Positions 3,034 through 57,249 of a DNA stretch of 64,000 nt are shown in pieces. This DNA is from Shimazuella soli (GTDB lineage: Bacteria > Bacillota > Bacilli > Thermoactinomycetales > Thermoactinomycetaceae), in contig NZ_JAKWBN010000001.1 of the NCBI RefSeq assembly GCF_022511585.1, positions 170,269 to 234,268 on the forward strand, written 5' to 3'. A program made the position numbers and the translations under genes. Below the pieces are notes generated by a model. It saw only the letters and a program-made list of their open reading frames with translations. It was not told where the DNA came from and did no database searches. How positions within the stretch are numbered: the stretch's first letter is position 1; each line of letters starts with the position of its first letter.

Positions 3034-4125
3034 TTGAGTGATGCAAATGTGAAACAATTGCGTGATGAGCTAGATTCTATCAATCTGGAATTACTTACAT
3101 TATTGAGTAAAAGAGCGAGTATTGTTCAAGAAATCGCTGATATAAAAACAAAACAGGGTGTAACCAAGTTTGATCCTGAGCGCGAGAAACAAATGCTCGA
3201 TCGCTTAGTTGAACATAATGAAGGTCCTTTTGATAATGAGGCAGTTCGTCACCTTTTTAAACAAATTTTTAAAGCCTCTTTACAGCTGCAAAAAGATGAT
3301 TCTAAAAAACATCTTTTAGTAAGCCGGAAAAAACAAGCGGAGGATACAGTAGTTACCCTTGGTTCTACTCAAGTAGGAAATGGAAAACCAACTATTGTCG
3401 CTGGTCCTTGTTCTGTCGAGTCAGAAGAACAAGTCCGTGAAGTAGCCAAAGCTTTGAAGAAAAATGGAGTAACTTTAATGCGGGGCGGAGCATTTAAACC
3501 TCGAACATCTCCTTACGATTTCCAAGGTCTCGGTGTGGAAGGTCTCGAGATTTTGCGCCGTGTTGCGGATGAATATGGTTTGCAAGTAATTAGTGAAATT
3601 GTAAACCCGAGTGATATTGAACTCGCTACAAAATATGTGGATGTCATTCAGATCGGTGCCCGTAATATGCAAAACTTCGAGCTGCTCAAAGCAGCTGGAG
3701 ATGTGAAGACTCCTGTATTGCTGAAACGCGGTTTATCCGCTACGATGGAAGAATTTTTGCATGCAGCAGAATACATTGTTCATCGTGGAAACAAAAATGT
3801 AATTCTCTGTGAACGCGGTATCCGTACGTATGAAAAATGGACCCGTAACACATTGGATATCTCTGCTGTACCATTGTTGAAAAACGAATCTCACCTTCCA
3901 GTAGTTGTCGACGTTACACACTCCGCTGGCCGTCGTGATATCTTGGTGCCACTTGCCAAAGCAGCATTAGCAGCTGGTGCAGATGCAGTTATGGTAGAAG
4001 TACATCCAAACCCAGCAGTAGCTCTATCCGACGCACAGCAACAGATCGACATCCCTACGTTCGATCAGTTTATGGCTGATTTGCATGCTTCGAAACTGCT
4101 TCCGGATTTGGTGGAATCGAAGTAA
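3034..4125 (+). CDS. aroA: bifunctional chorismate mutase / 3-deoxy-7-phosphoheptulonate (DAHP) synthase
   Basis: TTG start after GAGGGGAG. There is a chorismate-mutase N-domain, and the KDO8P/DAHP synthase body aligns closely to B. subtilis AroA ([35 protein letters not shown]). Confidence 0.9.
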
Positions 4126-4146
4126 GTTTTACCAAAGATATTGGAT

Positions 4147-4192
4147 AAGAACCCCCAAACCATTTGATGTGGTTTGGGGGTTCTTACTGTAT
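4147..4192 (+). terminator. rho-independent terminator after aroA
   Basis: aagaacccccaaacc...ggtttgggggttctt stem followed by a T-rich run. Confidence 0.7.
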
Positions 4193-4484
4193 TTCCAAGG
4201 AGATTACTTGATGTTTTTTTGACTTTTCTTGTCCTATATTTATCACCTCAATGTAGGTATATCAAGAAGTAAGTATCAAATACAATTTTTATTTTTTAGA
4301 TAAATAGGTTTAAATACTTTCCTTTATAGCATTACGAGCGAGTAAACCCACGGTAGGGGTAGTGGGATGTCAGATGAAGATACTTTTTTTCCTCTCGCAA
4401 GTCTGACTATTTTTTACATACACTTGACAAATAACGAACGTACGATCTATACTACTCGCAAAATTCCAACAGGGAGGTGATCCC

Positions 4485-6740
4485 ATGCATAAAGCATTTT
4501 CTTACCGTCTTCGACCGACCAAAACACAAGCGACACTGATTCACAAATCCATCGGCTGTAGCCGTTTTGTATTCAATCATTTTCTTGGCGAATGGAACAA
4601 CGTATATCAATCAACAGGTTCTTTCAATATGTTTTTGGCTGCATTGATATCAAACACGGTTATGCTTAACATAGATGAGTACTATTTGAGTACTTTACTT
4701 GTTCTTTTCGTTTGTATTCTTTGGCTTCGCATAGCAGCCTCATTTTGGTATGATAAACCTACTACTACAGGAAAGATAGATGGGAGAAGATTGTTCGTGA
4801 GTGCGAGAGAATACCTGGAAAAAGCAAACCGCTATCAGGTAAAACCGGAGGAATTATTTCAATATTTTGCGCAGCATGTTTTGCAAATAACCGTTTTATA
4901 TCAGAAATCATCATTAGGGAAAAAGCCTCTTTTAGCGAGAAGTAACCGGCCTGGCTCCAAATATATCGTCGCTTTCACGGATCAAGAAGCAGCGAAGACG
5001 GTGCGGGTTAGACAGCCGGAATTTTTAGAGATGACCGAAGAACCTGCCTTACAATTTATGCTTAAAGCATATCGCTCCAATGCAGAAGGACTGATGTTTA
5101 ACCCTGGATTGGATTCCCGTTTTTTTGTTGTACGACATCAACTTTTAGAGTGGATTCGATACTATTGTATCAATAAATTTTCCAAGCAGTCCACAGCTTG
5201 GGTGATTAAGAACGGTTCGTCTGTATTGAAAGGCTCCTATCAACCAGGATTTTCAACCATTGTGGTCTATACAGGAGAAGAAGAAGCGAGTAAAAGTGCA
5301 GAGAAGAGCGGCGGCCAAGCAACTCCAGTGAGTTGGGAAGATATTTTCCGTTATTTGGAAAGATTGGGTTCCAATACGTTATATGTAAACTATGGATTGC
5401 CAGAAGCTTTTTTACTTAATCCCGAACAAGTAAATCAAATACGGGATGGTTCCAAAACCGGATATGTGGAGCAAACAACCAATTCATACTCCTTTATCCC
5501 AGAAGTTTCAGATGCTGTTTTATCTCCTTCCACACTAAAAGAGGAAACAGCAGTATCTATCCCAGTGGAAATTCCAGTTGAAGAAGAAAAAACGGTTTCA
5601 ACAGAAGAAATCGGGGATTGGGAATCAGCTTTTCAAGAAGAAGAGCCCCTCACTTCTGGCAAGGATAGAAAGCTTTCCGATACATATGTACAGGTCGCCC
5701 CTGTAGAAAAAGTAAAAGTAGAGGAGTCAGGACATCTTACGACTACTCCTTCCGTTGGACAAAAAGAAGCTCCAAACGAAGTGGAAACAAAGCCACTGAT
5801 AACCGAAACAAAAGAAGAAACAATAGAACCAACAATAGAACCAACACATGCTGTATCAGAAGAAAAGCCAGAAGTCGTAGAACCGATAGCGGAAGTGGTA
5901 AAACAAGCAGAAACTCAAAATATTGTACCACCTATAGAACAAAAACATACTCCTGAGGAGAAAAGCCAGACTCCTATCCAAAAAATAGAGGAGACGGTTG
6001 TTCCTGCTACCGAGTCAAAACCATCTTCTGTTTCACAAAATACATATTCTGCTTTTGACAATCCGTGGGATGACGATGATGATGGTTTTTCAGAACCCGT
6101 TCCGCATACGAGTCTCTTTTTCCAATCCAATGATGAGAAACAAGCAGAACAAAATGTTACTCCGTCAATCCAGGAATCAAAACCAGAAGCCGTGATGGAG
6201 AAACCGGCTGAGCAGCCAAAACCAGAACCTGCCTTCCAGCAAAATCAGACTGCTGTAGAAGAACAACAGGTTATCGAGGAGCACGTAGAGCCAGAGCCGC
6301 TAGCTCATCAACCAATTTCGAATAATCCTGATATTCCAGAAGATGTTCAGTATGGCTTGCGAGTATTAGAAACTGCAACTAATGAAGGACAAGGAATGGC
6401 AAATGGTTGGGAAGTGTGTCGTGCGCTTGCTGATCTGAGAAGGATATGGGTAATTGTAGATATGGAAGGGAAAATGGTGATTTTAGCAAGTCAAAATGAA
6501 AATCAGATTGCTGATTTCTTCACCTCTGAAGAATATGCCCAAACTTTGATTGATGAAGCACATGGGCGTAACAACAGCCTCCCTCAGATGGTACCGAGAT
6601 TAATATCAACAAAAAAATTATTTCGTGCCTTAGCTCCTACTGGATGTGTGATCTGGATCAATCGAGGGTCTCCGAATGCTTGGACAAGTATCATGGGAGA
6701 TACCTTGCCATATGTTCTGCAACTAATGGCTCAAAAATAA
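4485..6740 (+). CDS. chimeric protein: TnpB (IS605/IS1341 OrfB) N-terminal remnant (~45 aa) + TM segment + SseB-family N and C domains separated by a long E/P/T/K-rich linker
   Basis: Residues 1-45 (KAFSYRLRPTKTQATLIHKSIGCSRFVFNHFL) match the conserved TnpB N-terminus. The remainder has SseB-like motifs (IVAFTDQEAAK, LYVNYGLPEAFLLNPEQV). TTGACA-18-TATACT and AGGGAGGTG lie immediately upstream of the ATG. Confidence 0.5.
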   Translation: MHKAFSYRLRPTKTQATLIHKSIGCSRFVFNHFLGEWNNVYQSTGSFNMFLAALISNTVMLNIDEYYLSTLLVLFVCILWLRIAASFWYDKPTTTGKIDGRRLFVSAREYLEKANRYQVKPEELFQYFAQHVLQITVLYQKSSLGKKPLLARSNRPGSKYIVAFTDQEAAKTVRVRQPEFLEMTEEPALQFMLKAYRSNAEGLMFNPGLDSRFFVVRHQLLEWIRYYCINKFSKQSTAWVIKNGSSVLKGSYQPGFSTIVVYTGEEEASKSAEKSGGQATPVSWEDIFRYLERLGSNTLYVNYGLPEAFLLNPEQVNQIRDGSKTGYVEQTTNSYSFIPEVSDAVLSPSTLKEETAVSIPVEIPVEEEKTVSTEEIGDWESAFQEEEPLTSGKDRKLSDTYVQVAPVEKVKVEESGHLTTTPSVGQKEAPNEVETKPLITETKEETIEPTIEPTHAVSEEKPEVVEPIAEVVKQAETQNIVPPIEQKHTPEEKSQTPIQKIEETVVPATESKPSSVSQNTYSAFDNPWDDDDDGFSEPVPHTSLFFQSNDEKQAEQNVTPSIQESKPEAVMEKPAEQPKPEPAFQQNQTAVEEQQVIEEHVEPEPLAHQPISNNPDIPEDVQYGLRVLETATNEGQGMANGWEVCRALADLRRIWVIVDMEGKMVILASQNENQIADFFTSEEYAQTLIDEAHGRNNSLPQMVPRLISTKKLFRALAPTGCVIWINRGSPNAWTSIMGDTLPYVLQLMAQK

Positions 6741-19399: not shown

Positions 19400-19650
19400 A
19401 AACAATAAGTGTTGAACTAAGCGAGTAGTCCCATGTATGTATCGTTCAGAGAGCTGGTGGAAAACAAAATGTATTTGTCGTTTTGTTAGGTGCGAACCAG
19501 TCGAACACATAGGATCAAATTACACTTAGGAAGCTTTGCGTTTAAACGCACGGGAGACCCGTTATATCTTATTCGAGTGGAGAACTTTTGGTTTTCAACA
19601 AGGGTGGTACCGCGGGCATAGCTCCGTCCCTTTTTAGGGACGGAGTTTTT
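19400..19650 (+). promoter_or_regulatory. T-box leader (tRNA-sensing riboswitch) preceding tyrS
   Basis: Conserved T-box sequence AGGGTGGTACCGCGG at 19599-19616, overlapping the terminator hairpin ctccgtccct/agggacggag + TTTTT at 19621-19649. The specifier loop was not resolved by eye. Confidence 0.7.
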
Positions 19651-19888
19651 CTATTCTCCACTTACTTGTCTTGGTTACTTCACTAGAGATCTCCAGAAAG
19701 GAGCGTGATACTTTTGTCAGACCTAAAAAAAGTAACACTCGCAGATGCGTTATCCAAATTATTGCTCACCAAAAAATATAAACGCGGTGAGGCAATTCCT
19801 ATTACAGAACTATTTGCGAAGGAGCAAAAAAAGCAGCAAATACCTACTGAAATTAGGAAGTAATCTTTCACAAGGAGTGAACTTAGCA

Positions 19889-21151
19889 ATGCGTTTACTA
19901 GAAGATTTGGCTTACAGAGGGTTGATCTACCAAACTACCGATCAAGAAAAATTAGACCAACGATTAGAGCAAAGACCTATCATCTTATATGCTGGGTTTG
20001 ATCCTACAGCAGACAGTTTGCATATTGGACATTTGCTTCCTATTCTCACTCTCCGCCGTTTTCAGCAATATGGGCATCAGCCGATTGCGTTAGTAGGCGG
20101 TGGAACTGGACTCATTGGAGATCCCAGCGGTAAAGCATCAGAGCGCACATTGAATACCAAAGAAGTTGTGCAAAGTTACTCTAATAGCATTCGCTCACAA
20201 CTGTCCCGATTCCTCGATTTTGAGAAGGCAGAAAATCCAGCTTTATTGGTTAACAACTACGATTGGCTGGGTGAGTTAGAATTGATTCCATTCTTACGAG
20301 ATATAGGAAAGCATTTCCCGCTTAATTACATGTTAGCAAAAGAATCGGTGAATTCACGACTTGAAAAAGGAATTTCTTTTACAGAGTTTAGCTACATGAT
20401 TTTGCAAGCATTTGATTACTTAGAATTACACCGCCGCTATGGATGCGAGCTTCAAGTAGGTGGCAGTGATCAGTGGGGAAATATCACTGCTGGGACAGAG
20501 TTAATCCGCAAAACAGGAAGCAAATCAGATGATTTGTTTGGTCTAACTATTCCATTGGTCACCAAAAGCGATGGCACCAAGTTTGGGAAGACCGAAGGTG
20601 GAGCAGTATGGTTAGATGCTCAGAAGACATCTCCATATTTATTCTATCAGTTTTGGTTAAATACCGATGACGCAGATGTTATCAAATACCTCAAATATTT
20701 TACCTTTTTAACCAAAGATCAGATCGAAGAATTGGCAGAAACAGTAAAAACTGCACCAGAAAAACGCCAAGCACAGCGTGCATTAGCAGAAGAAATGACA
20801 AAGCTCGTTCATGGCGAGCAAGCCCTTGTAAGCAGCCAAAATATAACTGCTGCATTGTTCCAAGGAAAAGTGAGCACGCTGAGTAGCTCTGAAATTGCGG
20901 AAGGGTTTCAAGATGTTCCATCAGCATTGATCCAAGAAAACGAAATTCCACTTGTTGATGTTTTGATTCAAGTGGGAGCAGCAAAATCCAAACGAGAAGC
21001 ACGAGAGTTTATACAAAATGGAGCTGTGACTGTTAACGATGAAAGAGTAACAGACACAAGCGTTTTAGTAAATACCTTAAAAGCAATTGATGATAAATAT
21101 TTGGTAATCCGCAGAGGGAAGAAGAAGTACTTCTTGGCGGAATTAGGTTAA
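19889..21151 (+). CDS. tyrS: tyrosine--tRNA ligase
   Basis: MRLLEDLAYRGLIYQTT start with AAGGAGTG RBS. HIGH (HIGHLLP) and KMSKS-like (KFGKT) motifs. 420 aa. Confidence 0.9.
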   Translation: MRLLEDLAYRGLIYQTTDQEKLDQRLEQRPIILYAGFDPTADSLHIGHLLPILTLRRFQQYGHQPIALVGGGTGLIGDPSGKASERTLNTKEVVQSYSNSIRSQLSRFLDFEKAENPALLVNNYDWLGELELIPFLRDIGKHFPLNYMLAKESVNSRLEKGISFTEFSYMILQAFDYLELHRRYGCELQVGGSDQWGNITAGTELIRKTGSKSDDLFGLTIPLVTKSDGTKFGKTEGGAVWLDAQKTSPYLFYQFWLNTDDADVIKYLKYFTFLTKDQIEELAETVKTAPEKRQAQRALAEEMTKLVHGEQALVSSQNITAALFQGKVSTLSSSEIAEGFQDVPSALIQENEIPLVDVLIQVGAAKSKREAREFIQNGAVTVNDERVTDTSVLVNTLKAIDDKYLVIRRGKKKYFLAELG

Positions 21152-26126: not shown

Positions 26127-26319
26127 GATGTTAAGCCCTTCTTTTGGAGGGAACCGGCGGTTTGATTTTATTATAGCATAGAGTTGTGTCATTTTATGGA
26201 ATGTTCAAACGATTAAAAAATATACTTTTGCTAGATAAATTTTCATTTTATTCCCCATAGTTCTATCTTTAGTGGGAGAAAATCGCTATACTAGAAGTAA
26301 CCGAGTGACAGGGGAAGAA

Positions 26320-26601
26320 ATGGTTAACACCATCACACAGATGATGCTCGCAGGCAGCAAGATCAGGCACCGCCACGGGAGCGGCATCGACTTCGATGAC
26401 TTCGATGGCGGGGGTTGCGCACCCTCGACCACGGGAGTGCAGTGGCTCGACTGGCTGCTCTTCATCGTCGTCTTCCTCTTCATCGCCTGCATCGCCTTCT
26501 TCGTCCTCCGCGCGTTTTTCGGAGGCACGAGGAGGACGAAGCCGGTTGCGAAGAAGAGGCCCGCGTCCCGGCAGGTGACGAAGACTTCGCTCGACAAGTA
26601 A
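26320..26601 (+). CDS. GC-rich small membrane protein (94 aa), likely horizontally acquired
   Basis: Strong GC3 bias in this frame only. One TM helix (WLDWLLFIVVFLFIACIAFFVL), then an R/K-rich tail. AGGGGAAG RBS. A GC-rich hairpin without a T-run lies downstream. Confidence 0.45.
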   Translation: MVNTITQMMLAGSKIRHRHGSGIDFDDFDGGGCAPSTTGVQWLDWLLFIVVFLFIACIAFFVLRAFFGGTRRTKPVAKKRPASRQVTKTSLDK

Positions 26602-27394: not shown

Positions 27395-27844
27395 GTGAAG
27401 AAGCCAGTTAAGATTGCACCAAAGGCGATTATTTTCAATCAAGATAAGGTGCTGATCCTTACGCGTTCTAAAAAAGAACGAAAAGATCGGCATTCGCACG
27501 GTTGGGATTTTCCTGGAGGCGGCTTAGAACCAGGAGAACAAATTATGGATGCGCTTGCAAGAGAAGTGAAAGAAGAGACCGGACTTTCCATAAAAGTAAT
27601 TTCTCCAGCATATATTTATGATGAGATCATGGATGAAAAGCATTTGGTTATCATGAAGTTTGCTTGTTGTAATCCGATCGGAGAAATCGAATTGAGCCCA
27701 GAGCATGACGAGTATCGCTGGGTAGAGATGAAAAAATTAGCAGATGAACCTTTTCCAGAGTGGATGAAAGAAGAAATGAGAAGAGCTTATCGCATGTATT
27801 TGGCTTATCGTGCGTCAGAGCATAATATATTAGTAGAACGATAA
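27395..27844 (+). CDS. Nudix hydrolase
   Basis: Nudix box GWDFPGGGLEPGEQIMDALAREVKEETGL. Terminator at 27844-27872. Confidence 0.75.
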   Translation: MKKPVKIAPKAIIFNQDKVLILTRSKKERKDRHSHGWDFPGGGLEPGEQIMDALAREVKEETGLSIKVISPAYIYDEIMDEKHLVIMKFACCNPIGEIELSPEHDEYRWVEMKKLADEPFPEWMKEEMRRAYRMYLAYRASEHNILVER

Positions 27845-27940
27845 AAAGCATGGCGTCTGCCATGCTTTTCTATTATGAAGGGATGATAGCAGGCGGGTGA
27901 TCCGGTCAATTTGATCGAACCACCCAAGTCCTAGTCTCGA

Positions 27941-28099
27941 CTAGTACGATCGCTTTCCGAAGCGAAAGTGGGAGCCTTCCTCACAGTCCGAACATGTCAT
28001 TCCACGTTCAAGGACCGCGTTCTGGCAAGTACACCCGTTTTTGGGGCACTCACATCGGGGGCCATCGTATTCCTTTGCAACATCAGCGTCAGGCTTCAC
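27941..28099 (-). CDS. SmtA/BmtA-family bacterial metallothionein (52 aa), GC-rich, not in ORF track
   Basis: Minus frame MKPDADVAKEYDGPRCECPKNGCTCQNAVLERGMTCSDCEEGSHFRFGKRSY. It has a CxCxxxxCxC...CSxxCxxGxH pattern like SmtA, a GTG start after AGGTAGGA, and strong GC3 bias. Confidence 0.5.
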   Translation of the reverse strand: MKPDADVAKEYDGPRCECPKNGCTCQNAVLERGMTCSDCEEGSHFRFGKRSY

Positions 28100-28175
28100 G
28101 TATCCTACCTAATCGAGCCCATTACTTATGCCTTTATTATAGATAACTATTTACAAAAATAATAATTGTAATTTT

Positions 28176-28930
28176 TTACACTGCGTTTTTCAGAGATTGA
28201 AGGTATTTTTCCCCTTTTTCTGAGTCATACTGCTTTTCCCATTTGGAAATAACAACAGTAGCAAGGGAATTTCCAACTACATTTACTGCCGTACGTGCCA
28301 TATCTAAAATCCGGTCAATACCTGCGATAAAGGCTAGTCCTTCCATAGGGATTTCAACGGAACCGAGTGTAGCCAGCAAGACGACGAATGATACTCCAGG
28401 TACACCAGCGATTCCAAGTCCTAACATAATAGAAAAAAAAGAAAATGATAGCGAGCATGTCGCCGTTTACAAGTGATTCTATGATATTCGTAGGTACGAT
28501 GTTGACGAGTGTATCTACAAAACTATGGCTCTCTTGGGTTTTGGCTGTTGATACATATGATCCTATATCGCTTTTTTGTAAGTGTTGCATCTGAACACCA
28601 TGACCTGGTTGGAAAACGTTTGCAACCAATAATTCAATTAAAATAGCTACCGTTGTAATAATTTCAAAGTAAAGAAGCGTTTTTCCGCCTAATTTCCCCG
28701 GATTTTTTAAAGCTTCCCGTTCCGGCTACCCCTAGAACTAGTGTAGAGACAACAATAGGGATAACGATCATTTTGATAAGATGAAGAAAAATATCACCAA
28801 TTGGCTGCAAGTAAGTAGCTACCTTTGGGTTTCCAAAGAAGACAGCACCTACGATGATTCCTGACACCAAACCTATTAAAATTTGATAAGCTAAGCTAAT
28901 TTTTTTCGTAAAGTTCTACTCTCTAGATCT
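28176..28930 (-). pseudogene. proton/sodium-glutamate symporter (GltP/GltT family) pseudogene: three frames plus a large internal deletion
   Basis: Three minus-strand ORF fragments match the N-terminal (GAVFFGNPKVATYLQPIGDIFL), middle (NVFQPGHGV...GDMLAIIFF) and C-terminal (GIAGVPGVSFVVLLATLG...AGIDRILDMARTAVNV) parts of GltP. They lie in different frames, and ~230 codons are missing. Confidence 0.65.
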
Positions 28931-28934
28931 AGAC

Positions 28935-32755: not shown

Positions 32756-33877
32756 CTACTGGTTGGTCTCAGCCTTGTCTCCGGCCGCCGCCAGTGCGCG
32801 GTTGCGCCGGACGGACGACCAGAAGGACCAGGCGATCAGCACGACGCCGACGAGGCCGGTGATGACCTCGTTGATCTCGTACTGGATGGTGACCATCAGG
32901 ATGACGGCCAGCGCCCCGATTGCGTAGTGAGCGCCGTGTTCGAGGTAGACGTAGTCGTCGAGCGTGCCCTCACGAACCAGGTACACCGTCAGCGACCTGA
33001 CGAACATGGCACCGATGCCGAGCCCGAGCACCATCAGCACGATATCGTTGGTGATGGCGAAGGCACCGATCACGCCGTCAAAGGAGAAGGACGCGTCGAT
33101 AACCTCCAGATAGAGGAACATGTAGAGCGCAGCCTGGCCGGCGAGCTGGATCACGGACTTCTTCTTGCCGGTACGGGCGGCCTCTTCCTCCTCCTCGTGC
33201 TCCCGCTCCTCCTCAGCCTCCAGCTTGTCCTCGAAGTAGCCGGACAGACCGGCGACGATCATGTAGATGATCAGACCGGCGATGCCGGCGATCAGGACCG
33301 CATGCGACTTGTTAGCGTACCCGTTGTGCTGGTGGGCGTGGGTCGCGAAGGTGAAGGAGGTGATCAAGAGTACGATCAGAGCGATGCAGACCGACAGCAT
33401 GTCTACCTTGCCGAGCTTGGCCAGAGGCTTCTCCAGCCAGTTGAGCCACTTGATGTCGCGATCTTCGAAGATGAAGTCGAGGAAGATCATCAAGAGGAAC
33501 ATCTCGCCGAACGCGCCGATCGCCGGGTGGGCGTCTGTCACGTACTGCTTGTACAGTTCCTTGTTGGTCAGCGCCAGATGAACCGCATCGATCGGGTTCA
33601 TATCGGCGCTGATCGACACGATTACGACCGGGAAGACCAGCCGCATGCCGAACACCGCGATCAGCACGCCGACCGAGAGGAAGATCTTCTGCCAGAAGGC
33701 ATTCATCTTCTTCAGGATTCCGGCGTTGATCACCGCGTTGTCGAACGACACGGAGATCTCCAGAATCGCGAGAATCGCCACGATCCCGAAAGCAGCCCAG
33801 CCTCCGTAAAAGGAGGCTGTGGTCAGACCGAACGCAGTGGCTACGATTGACCAACCGAATGTTCTGAGCAACAACAT
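32756..33877 (-). CDS. DUF475 (TerC-related) integral membrane protein, ~62% GC, likely horizontally acquired
   Basis: Multi-TM protein with an internal EEEREHEEEEE loop. GC3-biased in this frame. GGGAG RBS. It is followed by a GC-rich hairpin (gccccccg...cggggggc) without a T-run. Confidence 0.6.
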   Translation of the reverse strand: MLLLRTFGWSIVATAFGLTTASFYGGWAAFGIVAILAILEISVSFDNAVINAGILKKMNAFWQKIFLSVGVLIAVFGMRLVFPVVIVSISADMNPIDAVHLALTNKELYKQYVTDAHPAIGAFGEMFLLMIFLDFIFEDRDIKWLNWLEKPLAKLGKVDMLSVCIALIVLLITSFTFATHAHQHNGYANKSHAVLIAGIAGLIIYMIVAGLSGYFEDKLEAEEEREHEEEEEAARTGKKKSVIQLAGQAALYMFLYLEVIDASFSFDGVIGAFAITNDIVLMVLGLGIGAMFVRSLTVYLVREGTLDDYVYLEHGAHYAIGALAVILMVTIQYEINEVITGLVGVVLIAWSFWSSVRRNRALAAAGDKAETNQ

Positions 33878-41413: not shown

Positions 41414-41440
41414 ACCTAATTTCCCCCTTTTATTAAGGGA

Positions 41441-41494
41441 GATCAGTCACGTCGCACACGGCCAGATGCTAAGCATTGGCTACCGTCCACAGTG
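41441..41494. repeat. inverted repeat, right arm (contains an extra palindromic 20-nt insertion)
   Basis: See the left arm. It is followed by a ~150-bp GC-rich structured segment (41495-41640). Confidence 0.7.
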
Positions 41495-41882
41495 TCTGCC
41501 CCAGGCAGACGAAAAGCTAAGGTAAAACTGTGCAGGGATGGCGAAAGCCCTCTACCTGCGCTGCTATCGCTGGTTCCTGCCAAAGGCAGCTGTTTTCACG
41601 ATAACGTGATCGAGTAAACATGCAGCTCCACTCAGCCGAGAACATTATGTTCGATCAGGCGAGGAGCACATATTTCTATCAGATCAAAACAGACATACTT
41701 TTATCTAATCATAATGTGATTATATTTTCAATATTAGCTAAAATGGGAATCCGTTGCGTTAAAAACAGATGGTCTTCCACACCTCAAGGATTTCTTGATC
41801 ATCACTTTTCTGAGTAGCCGTTTTATTTGGTATAAACATTCGTGTAAACAAAAGAACAAATGGAGAATTTAAATTTTACATC

Positions 41883-44253: not shown

Positions 44254-44769
44254 ATGAAGATACTCACACACGTGGGATTGAATGAAGGAGCGGTCGTGAA
44301 CAAGTTCTCAGAAACCGAAATGCGGACGATCTTCCGGAACGCAAGGAACGCCGTGCAGAACCCCATCCAGAAGAATGTCGCTGGGTTCTTCCCTGGTGGG
44401 AAGTTCTACAGCGTTGACGAGCTGAGCACGCCCGTCGATCGTTGGAACTTTCCGCGGCGAGACCAGTCGAAGACTGTGGTCTCCGTGCAGGTGACCTCGA
44501 ACGGACGGATGGGGATCGCAGGATTCCCTGCGCCGATCATCACTACGAATCTGGAGGAGAAGTACGAAGAAGAGGGGATCCACTACTACGCGGATCTCGC
44601 TGACATGGGGGTCCGATCGACCGCCGTGGCGTACAGTCTGATGGACTTCAGGGGGGAGGGGAATGTTCCCGCAATGTTCCTCCTCTTCCACCGAGTGTCC
44701 AAGACCATGTTCTACGTGGTCGGGTACTGGAGGTTCGGGTCTGTTTACGAACCCTTCCTCACGTACTGA
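44254..44769 (+). CDS. GC-rich (~60%) protein of unknown function (171 aa), likely horizontally acquired
   Basis: Strong GC3 bias in the plus frame only. The antisense 188-aa ORF is spurious. No recognisable motif. Confidence 0.45.
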   Translation: MKILTHVGLNEGAVVNKFSETEMRTIFRNARNAVQNPIQKNVAGFFPGGKFYSVDELSTPVDRWNFPRRDQSKTVVSVQVTSNGRMGIAGFPAPIITTNLEEKYEEEGIHYYADLADMGVRSTAVAYSLMDFRGEGNVPAMFLLFHRVSKTMFYVVGYWRFGSVYEPFLTY

Positions 44770-55925: not shown

Positions 55926-56249
55926 AAATTAAAAAAACTGTTAGCATTTTAGTGCTTACAGTTTTTTTGACATCTTAATAAATTACAAATAAATTTATAT
56001 TTTCAACAAGCATTTCAATCGCTTTCATGATATACTAATCATGTCGAACCCGGGTGAAGGGGCGGCGTATCTGTAAAGCTGCACAACTGAGTGCGTACTG
56101 TACCAGAAGGTATAATCTGTGGAGGAATAACAAGCTTCTCATACAATGCTGTTGTCGCTGATTTGTTAAGGACGTTAGTCCTTGATATTTCTGCGAACGC
56201 AGCTGAAGAGGAGCCCACAGGTTTACTGACTGGGAATGTACGCATGAGG

Positions 56250-56640
56250 AAGTGTAGTGTGTAGGATACGTCGTCCTGTGTACCGCTAGTAGGCGTGGAT
56301 ATATAAAACTTCTGGTGGCTCAGAGAGCCAACCCAGTGGCGCGGATGCGCCACAACTCGGTGGCGGGAGAGCCGCCATAAACTCGGTGGCGGGAGAGTCG
56401 CCACAAACTCAGTGGCGCTGAGCGCCACTAAGGGGGCGGGAGCCCCAAAATCCCGCCTGGGGCTTAGGCCCCAGCCTACCCGCTTCGGCGGGTAGGAAGG
56501 GCGGGATGCCAGCACCAAAATAACGGTCGTGGCCCTCCAGGCCACGACCGGAGCGGACCGTCTATTCTCATAGCTGTATTTTAGCTATGAGAATAGACAC
56601 CACTCACCGCCCTCGATCCGTCGGGGGCACCCACTTTTTA
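56250..56640. repeat. GC-rich array of short palindromic hairpins, including four tandem ~25-bp units (consensus aacTCRGTGGCGsgaGaGyCGCCAcaa)
   Basis: Stems gtggcgc/gcgccac, tggcgg/ccgcca x2 and agtggcgc/gcgccact. Further on there are tggggc/gcccca, acccgc-ttcg-gcgggt, a 10-bp ggtcgtggcc/ggccacgacc and a 12-bp attctcatagct/agctatgagaat. Confidence 0.8.
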
Positions 56641-56772
56641 TAGGGCAAATTTCCAATCACTATTGCAGTGATTTTTTTATTTTCAGGAATGAAGTTTAAT
56701 GAAACCATTGAATTTCGTATAAATAACCTCCAAACGCAAAAAATAACGTTGTGATTATAGGAGGTTATTTCA

Positions 56773-57249
56773 TTGACAACACAACATGCTAAGCAAGTCC
56801 AACAGGAACAAGCTTATGATCAATTGGCGCAAAAACATCGTCCAAAACCAAAGGTTTTAGCAAACTGTTTAAAAGCATTTTTCGTAGGTGGTTTTATTTG
56901 TATCATCGGTGAAGCTTTAAACATGCTCTATGGTAAAGGATTTGGATATCCAAAAGATGTGGCAAGCAGTATGACAGTTGCTACTATCGTCATTATTACA
57001 TGTCTCTTGACCGGTTTTGGGGTATACGACAACATTGGGCAGTGGGCTGGAGCAGGTACAGCGGTGCCAGTTACTGGTTTTGCGAATTCGATCGCCTCTG
57101 CTGCTTTGGAGCATAAATCAGAAGGTTTTGTGCTCGGTGTAGGTGGAAATATGTTTAAATTAGCTGGTTCTGTTATCGTTTGGGGTGTATTCTCTGCCTT
57201 TGTTGTCAGTTTGATTCGGACATTGGTCATCATGTCGATAGGAGGCTAA
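56773..57249 (+). CDS. spoVAC: stage V sporulation protein AC
   Basis: 158 aa. The membrane-protein sequence closely matches the SpoVAC family. Confidence 0.85.
   Translation: MTTQHAKQVQQEQAYDQLAQKHRPKPKVLANCLKAFFVGGFICIIGEALNMLYGKGFGYPKDVASSMTVATIVIITCLLTGFGVYDNIGQWAGAGTAVPVTGFANSIASAALEHKSEGFVLGVGGNMFKLAGSVIVWGVFSAFVVSLIRTLVIMSIGG

Follow-up and report, generated by a model that had tools for sequence, protein, structure and literature searches.

The minus strand of the window (that is, the whole 64,000-nucleotide stretch of Shimazuella soli DNA analysed here) carries a 52-codon open reading frame that, judging from comparison with a syntenic relative, is a real gene under purifying selection. 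We favor, with moderate confidence, the interpretation that it is a genuine orphan gene, probably with its own promoter, whose product is most likely a metal-binding mini-protein and not a demonstrable member of the BmtA family of metallothioneins. The original prediction was correct in placing a 52-aa ORF with a GTG start and a ribosome-binding site here (Table 1), as well as in treating it as an unannotated small gene, since the relative preserves both the gene and its Cys/His ligand set; the family membership that it proposed is not supported. The predicted product, MKPDADVAKEYDGPRCECPKNGCTCQNAVLERGMTCSDCEEGSHFRFGKRSY, has six Cys and one His in 52 residues, and the candidate ligands (C16, C18, C23, C25, C36, C39, and H44) are invariant in the window protein and its homologue, both of which have the spacing CxCx4CxC...CxxC-x4-H within an unchanged core, GPRCEC-x4-CTC-x-NAVLERG-x-TCSDC-xx-GSHF. 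The second Cys pair had been written as CSxxC, whereas the actual segment, TCSDCEEGSH, is CSxC. Four residues are aromatic (Y11, F45, F47, and Y52), and a signal peptide, leader or hydrophobic stretch is absent from the sequence of the protein.

Table 1. Features of the small gene and its immediate surroundings (coordinates of the window; L161, the syntenic contig of the relative).
Feature	Position	Strand	Remarks
Small-gene CDS	27941..28099	(-)	52 aa, Cys6His1; GTG start at 28099, TAG stop
Shine-Dalgarno-like AGGTAGG	28104..28110	(-)	4 nt 5' of GTG; identical in L161
AT-rich upstream block (putative promoter or operator)	28134..28180	(-)	43/47 nt identical (91%), window vs. L161
gltP pseudogene	28185..28879	(-)	directly upstream, same strand; context only, separate from the small gene
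Stem-loop GGGTGGTTCGATCAAATTGACCGGATCACCC	27895..27925	(-)	predicted by folding; 16 nt 3' of the stop codon
Bidirectional intrinsic terminator AAAAGCATGGC-AGAC-GCCATGCTTTTT	27843..27869	.	common to the convergent NUDIX gene

Taken alone, the small ORF is indistinguishable from chance: among the 697 stop-to-stop ORFs of the window that reach 40 aa, 10 place six or more Cys in a 30-residue span, most of them plainly wrong-frame artefacts, and stop-free frames are frequent in GC-rich DNA. The evidence for a gene comes from a relative. Using the reconstructed gltP pseudogene as query, we recovered a 190-aa fragment (P0061, 79% identical). It lies on an 8.7-kb contig (L161; Logan SRR28384307) whose genes come in exactly the order seen in the window: M29 peptidase - GAF - gltP - 338-nt gap - NUDIX - thioesterase. 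No gene is called in the gltP/NUDIX gap of L161, which aligns with window positions 27835-28190 (-) at a mean column identity of 83% and holds an intact homologue at 5246-5395 (GTG...TAA, 49 codons; product MKLNKNAEEYKGPRCECSEAQCTCKNAVLERGVTCSDCKDGSHFYWGKR). Over the 49 aligned codons, the differences between the two genes are distributed 13/6/30 over codon positions 1/2/3 (chi-square p=8.9e-5), and pN is 0.198 against a pS of 0.84 (ratio 0.24), a selection signal that represents one pairwise comparison of 49 codons, since there is a single homologue. The sole internal indel is 3 nt long and in frame, and the six Cys and His44 are invariant (seven of the 33 positions invariant between the two proteins), with four of the six Cys codons having been swapped synonymously between TGT and TGC. 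Further, the NAVLERG core shows five synonymous and no non-synonymous changes, and both the GTG start and the AGGTAGG sequence are kept. The intact frame, third-position excess, in-frame indel, and conserved Cys/His, start and ribosome-binding site thus argue for a real gene that gene callers have missed. Its product shares 67% amino-acid identity with the L161 homologue vs. 82-97% for the products of neighbouring genes, which suggests that the protein evolves fast outside its fixed core. The antisense frame is open in both genomes as well; its protein is unconserved and the position pattern is wrong for coding.

Alternatively, the ORF might be fortuitous, and the segment a structured non-coding RNA, a minus-strand 3'-UTR element, or neutral debris of the insertion that brought gltP. 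This alternative would account for the unremarkable statistics of the ORF in a single genome and for the lack of protein homologues in large databases (below), and the minus-strand RNA of 27930-28122 does fold better than shuffles of it (-71.2 vs. -56.6 +/- 4.3 kcal/mol; z=-3.4, none of 200 shuffles as good; z=0 for the plus strand). However, z values of -3.4 or lower were reached by 5 of 98 segments of 193 nt drawn at random from this sequence, and a GC-regressed folding scan of the whole window placed the small-ORF region only in the top 3-12%. Substitutions between the window and L161 track codon positions, not helices, the indel respects the frame, the start, ribosome-binding site and Cys are conserved, and the protein of the antisense frame is not. 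The hairpins of the window are lost in L161, the RNAalifold consensus with that sequence reaching -21.2 kcal/mol vs. -71.2 kcal/mol for the window alone; hence, the constraint appears to act on the protein rather than on RNA structure. Given also that Rfam gave no match at E<=1 for the small-ORF region, we rejected a structured non-coding RNA, and we regard the fortuitous-ORF alternative as a whole as very improbable, L161 having already largely refuted it.

The folding and Rfam scans revealed a few additional elements elsewhere in the window. The only Rfam family at gathering score within the 64 kb is RF00230, a T-box leader at 19403-19634 (+) scoring 97 bits, upstream of ORF 19745-21151. A GC-rich intergenic element of ~650 nt at 56030-56700 (+), flanked by a CBS-domain gene and by ORF 56773-57249 (presumably SpoVAC-like), folds at -326 to -340 kcal/mol vs. 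approximately -221 to -226 kcal/mol for shuffles (z of about -18 to -19 on the plus strand, -9 on the minus strand), with an extended, rod-like domain on the 5' side and, after it, a succession of GC-rich hairpins that includes a tandem array (56329-56418) of 3.6 copies of a 26-nt palindromic unit; Rfam gave no match to this element, nor did any plasmid sequence resemble it. Finally, a GC-rich intergenic island at 41433-41607 (175 nt, 54% GC) has no convincing ORF, fold z values of -2.8 (+) and -4.0 (-), and no Rfam match.

Immediately upstream of the Shine-Dalgarno-like sequence, the 5' leader of the small gene has diverged between the window and L161. Farther upstream, an AT-rich block of 47 nt extends from the gltP stop codon to a perfect -10 hexamer, TATAAT (28141-28136), and differs between the two genomes at only 4 of its 47 nt, as opposed to 29-62% of the synonymous sites of neighbouring genes. 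We presume this block to be the putative promoter or operator of the small gene, which would then be transcribed from a promoter of its own; since the -35 element is poor, read-through from upstream (the GAF gene and what remains of gltP) may alternatively supply the transcripts. As for the idea of a regulon operator, the window holds no second copy of the block, and the likenesses to Fur, Zur or PerR boxes, seen by eye only and in AT-rich DNA, are not claimed here. On the 3' side, a palindrome had been described right after the stop codon and is indeed present (CTAGTCGAGACTAG, 27944-27931), although it overlaps the stop codon and is not kept in L161. L161 does retain the predicted stem-loop beyond it: a single G-U to A-U change leaves the stem intact, and the loop differs. 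The terminator likewise has a conserved stem and a different loop there; the NUDIX ORF ends at 27844.

The neighbourhood of the small gene is a variable spot, in agreement with the remodelling that had been proposed for it. The adjoining gltP is decayed, as originally predicted: it has lost residues 148-332 and carries two frameshifts, with Pfam SDF matches on two fragments and with tblastn of a Geobacillus GltP (P0030) against the window recovering aa 1-67, 57-147, and 333-409 in three different frames. The L161 gltP (3903-5169) is full length, with a single frameshift at about residue 147. The deletion of 185 residues in the window copy begins at this very point, which suggests that the common ancestor already had an inactive gltP, provided that the frameshift in L161 is not due to misassembly; with the same proviso, the small gene persists while the adjoining gltP decays in both lineages. 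The GAF protein led to syntenic loci only in Thermoactinomycetaceae (Melghirimyces, Marininema, and Polycladospora; 58-67% amino-acid identity), and it is the GAF/NUDIX junction (window 27845-28934) that varies among these Thermoactinomycetaceae-like genomes. Specifically, nothing lies between GAF and NUDIX in Melghirimyces and Marininema (in loci L002 and L009, ~40-50 nt separate the two genes, without a small ORF), the Polycladospora junction (L014) has an inserted 397-aa ORF that resembles a NagA-type amidohydrolase by eye, and in the window and L161 the space is taken up by gltP and the small Cys gene. Other GltP homologues (P0027, P0028, P0103, and P0145) are found in unrelated contexts without the small ORF and, therefore, the small gene does not appear to be generally linked to gltP. 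A NUDIX-anchored scan of metagenomes returned distant NUDIX proteins only (41% identity or less, except for one 41-residue segment at 54%).

The composition of the small gene is atypical, although not in the way first described. The ORF had been put at ~62% GC in a ~38% GC background with a strong third-position bias; the actual values are 54.1% for the ORF and 39.6% for the window, with GC of 0.57/0.49/0.57 at codon positions 1/2/3. What stands is that the segment is GC-richer than its surroundings, forming a local GC island, and that its codons are unusual: the codon adaptation index (CAI), a check that had been suggested, is 0.559 vs. 0.717 +/- 0.023 for 38 native genes, and among 52-codon pieces of native genes only 0.15% have a value this low. 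With the codon preferences of the host, the amino acids of the protein would give 45% GC rather than the observed 54%; about 5.5 points of the excess are attributable to amino-acid composition and about 9 points to synonymous codon choice. The segment cannot be read as a decayed fragment of a high-GC gene, an idea that we rejected since GC3 periodicity is present in no reading frame.

Acquisition from a high-GC donor is thus possible but unproven. The atypical codons speak for such an origin, as does a weak, non-significant likeness to a Mycobacterium plasmid protein (below), whereas the GC and GC3 values originally quoted in its support were wrong and the gene is older than the split between the window and L161 (pS of neighbouring genes, 0.3-0.6). 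Since the gene predates this split and is equally GC-rich in L161 (53%, GC3 0.64) despite saturated synonymous sites, recent transfer is not the explanation.

The window also contains genes that look genuinely foreign, with GC3 of 0.77-0.86. A DUF475/TerC-like membrane protein gene at 32756-33877 (-) (Pfam E=3e-134; 60% GC, GC3 0.86, CAI 0.44) stands out as a sharply bounded island, one gene long, whose composition looks foreign to a genome of 40% GC. Two GC-rich ORFs at 26272-26601 (+) (109 aa) and 44254-44769 (+) (171 aa), with GC3 of 0.78 and 0.77, respectively, and CAI of ~0.45, have a coding-like GC3 and no Pfam or NCBIfam family, and may likewise be orphan genes with a foreign composition; the former includes a hydrophobic stretch and lacks a tblastn match in L161. 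The idea that the GC-rich islands are copies of one element was rejected because they show no mutual similarity.

Searches for further homologues of the small protein were negative. No relative was found by a word-indexed search of 5.8 billion proteins, by exhaustive phmmer against 1.84 billion protein representatives, by a back-translated scan of metagenome contigs, or by a scan of viral contigs with the two-sequence alignment; exact-sequence look-ups of the small ORF and of the NUDIX, GAF, and S4 proteins in protein collections returned no match; and the small protein had no match in NCBIfam (E<=1), PHROGs, Pfam, or PDB sequence searches. Among plasmids and phages, blastn and tblastn gave only the non-significant Mycobacterium match. 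The absence from databases may be explained by gene callers skipping the position, as L161, with no call there, illustrates, and BmtA-type ORFs are likewise often overlooked or left unannotated because of their small size (PMC3323870). The orphan family, as defined by these searches, is so far known from two related Thermoactinomycetaceae-like genomes. It is tempting to go further and to propose, more tentatively than the above, a new family of Cys6His mini-metalloproteins of thermophilic, spore-forming Bacillales that callers skip, in which the resemblance to the zinc-finger half of SmtA would be convergent or would mark an extremely remote offshoot, and in which GC-rich synonymous sites would be selected in two AT-rich genomes instead of being a vanishing trace of recent transfer.

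How the protein might work can be outlined from its sequence. The hydrophilic product of 49-52 aa without a signal peptide would presumably be cytoplasmic. One CxC pair would occupy each strand of a short beta-hairpin so that four thiolates are presented on one face. Along with the CxxC pair and His44, these thiolates would coordinate one or two ions, either Zn(II) or another thiophilic metal. A single-sequence AlphaFold model of low confidence (pLDDT 64) places strands 15-17 and 24-26 on the CxC pairs and contains no helix, and a structure search with this low-confidence model returned no structural neighbour. Judging from its low Cys content (~12%), its aromatic residues, and its conserved non-ligand core, the protein would be a zinc-finger-like, folded mini-protein or a low-capacity metal buffer rather than a classical, high-capacity metallothionein. 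The promoter, cytoplasmic location, metal binding and stoichiometry are what we infer for the small protein at this stage.

A different possibility is that the Cys serve a purpose other than metal storage, the product being a redox-active or disulfide-forming small regulator, perhaps linked to the GAF protein, or the precursor of a modified peptide. The small gene is on the same strand as, and directly downstream of, the GAF-domain gene, which we take to be of the free methionine-sulfoxide-reductase type, and the conserved NAVLERG and the aromatic/basic tail suggest a surface for a specific partner; six Cys in ~50 residues are also reminiscent of SCIFF-type peptides. Nonetheless, the coupling to GAF is not tight, given the two loci where GAF stands beside NUDIX without the small ORF, no radical-SAM or other maturase gene adjoins the small gene, there is no leader or signal peptide, and NCBIfam, which we believe to include a SCIFF model, gave no match at E<=1. 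Hence, we consider a non-metal role unlikely and favor a metal-binding mini-protein.

Bacterial metallothionein-like proteins are rare and scattered, and are often missed because of their tiny size; a conserved Cys6His protein of Bacillales that has no detectable relatives would extend the short list of bacterial metal-binding mini-proteins by a new sequence type. Further, the case illustrates that a small gene under selection can be missing from 1.84 billion protein representatives and be visible only through nucleotide comparison with a syntenic relative. The scope is modest, the family consisting of two sequences, with no link to metal homeostasis among the window ORFs scanned (that is, no match to ArsR/SmtB, MerR or Fur/Zur-family regulators or to metal transporters).

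The known system that most resembles the small protein is the SmtA/BmtA family (PF02069), to which the original prediction had assigned it, and it is important to weigh whether the protein could be a true, very divergent member that came from a high-GC donor and sequesters Zn or Cd. The order of ligands is equal (CxC..CxC, an A-V-x-E-R-G loop, then C-S-x-C-x-x-G-x-H), about 17 residues match P. aeruginosa BmtA by eye if four gaps are allowed, the codons are atypical and GC is above background, and, as noted above, bmtA genes often go unannotated. The family search that had been proposed as a check, however, yielded no PF02069 match for either homologue, whether at E<=1 or at E<=10, the Pfam gathering score being 33 bits, while the positive controls scored 75.2 bits (SmtA) and 49.9 bits (P. 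aeruginosa BmtA, the control sequence being 96-97% identical to database entries). A custom BmtA/SmtA HMM of nine sequences, run with --max and without filters, gave the small ORF 1.4 bits, ranking it 41st among 1116 window ORFs. In hhalign, the two-sequence profile aligned with the nine-sequence BmtA/SmtA profile over 29 columns at a probability of 9.6% (P=0.0034), in a register that places the CxC pairs opposite those of SmtA, and likewise the A-V...R-G loop and the second pair of Cys. In a shuffle test against the BmtA HMM without composition correction, the scores of the two real sequences were equalled or exceeded by 5.5% and 4.2% of 4000 composition-preserving shuffles. PDB sequence searches with the single protein and with the two-sequence profile found no metallothionein chain at E<=10. 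Thus, there is no family match, whereas the Cys/His spacing, for which conservation among homologues had been the other point to check, is conserved in the sole homologue.

SmtA site A consists of Cys9, Cys14, Cys32, and Cys36, and further Cys and His complete a Zn4 cluster. The small protein has four Cys and a His in the same order as this site with other spacing: its N-terminal Cys are arranged as C-x-C-x4-C-x-C, as opposed to C-x-C-x2-C-x-C (C9, C11, C14, and C16) throughout the family alignment, and its second pair is C36-x2-C39-x4-H44, as opposed to Cx3C-x3-H. In SmtA/BmtA, the zinc-finger fold spans residues 7-38, site A is fully conserved, and the highly conserved Tyr31 and Ala37 mediate the CH-pi contact between hairpin and helix (PMC3323870). 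The equivalents of these two residues in the small protein are Thr35 and Glu40 (Lys in L161), the Ala37 position being invariant in the family alignment. The C-terminal cluster of SmtA (Cys47/His49/Cys52/Cys54) is absent, the small protein ending 5-8 residues past His44 without another Cys or His; a Zn4 cluster would therefore be impossible, leaving at most about two metal sites vs. four. Metallothioneins usually have a Cys content of ~15-30%, and the generic trait of very high Cys and few aromatics is not seen here, with 11.5% Cys (6/52) in the window protein, 12.2% (6/49) in L161, and four aromatics. SmtA/BmtA proteins are also known from cyanobacteria or proteobacteria, as opposed to the Bacillales lineage of the small gene. 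Taken together, the PF02069, custom HMM, hhalign, and shuffle results, the three differing spacings, the Tyr/Ala positions, and the missing C-terminal cluster leave membership in the family unsupported, in addition to which no SmtB- or Zur-family regulator was present among the window ORFs scanned; a true divergent BmtA is, in our view, improbable. What the two share is small size (~50-80 aa), CxC pairs, an A-V/I-x-x-R-x-G loop, and a Cys pair followed by G-x-H. In its ligand order, the small protein is similar to the N-terminal half of SmtA, which is the zinc-finger half, and a functional likeness to that half is plausible.

Two further comparisons are worth noting. WP_068004409.1, a 136-aa hypothetical protein encoded by the Mycobacterium adipatum plasmid pMYC1 (L165 1462-1872), gave the only tblastn match that spans the whole Cys region, with GPRC...C...GMPCGEC...GSH against GPRC...C...GMTCSDC..GSH in the small protein and 40-44% identity over ~40 residues, to the window protein and the L161 homologue alike. 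The match is non-significant in a database search (E=2), the relationship being unproven; the plasmid protein lacks both CxC doublets, having four Cys and the His only, and the likeness is confined to its N-terminus (GPRCILPGCGNGAEEQGMPCGECADAFGSH), with a second Cys-rich module at its C-terminus and a high-GC actinobacterium as its host. Finally, Zn2Cys6 clusters of the GAL4 type, tesmin/CXC domains, and mycobacterial MymT are small, CxC-containing zinc modules. Their spacing and context differ from those of the small protein, and no Pfam model is similar to it; the analogy is hence functional only, namely that six Cys could bridge two metals and that CxC doublets could serve as the ligands in such a module.
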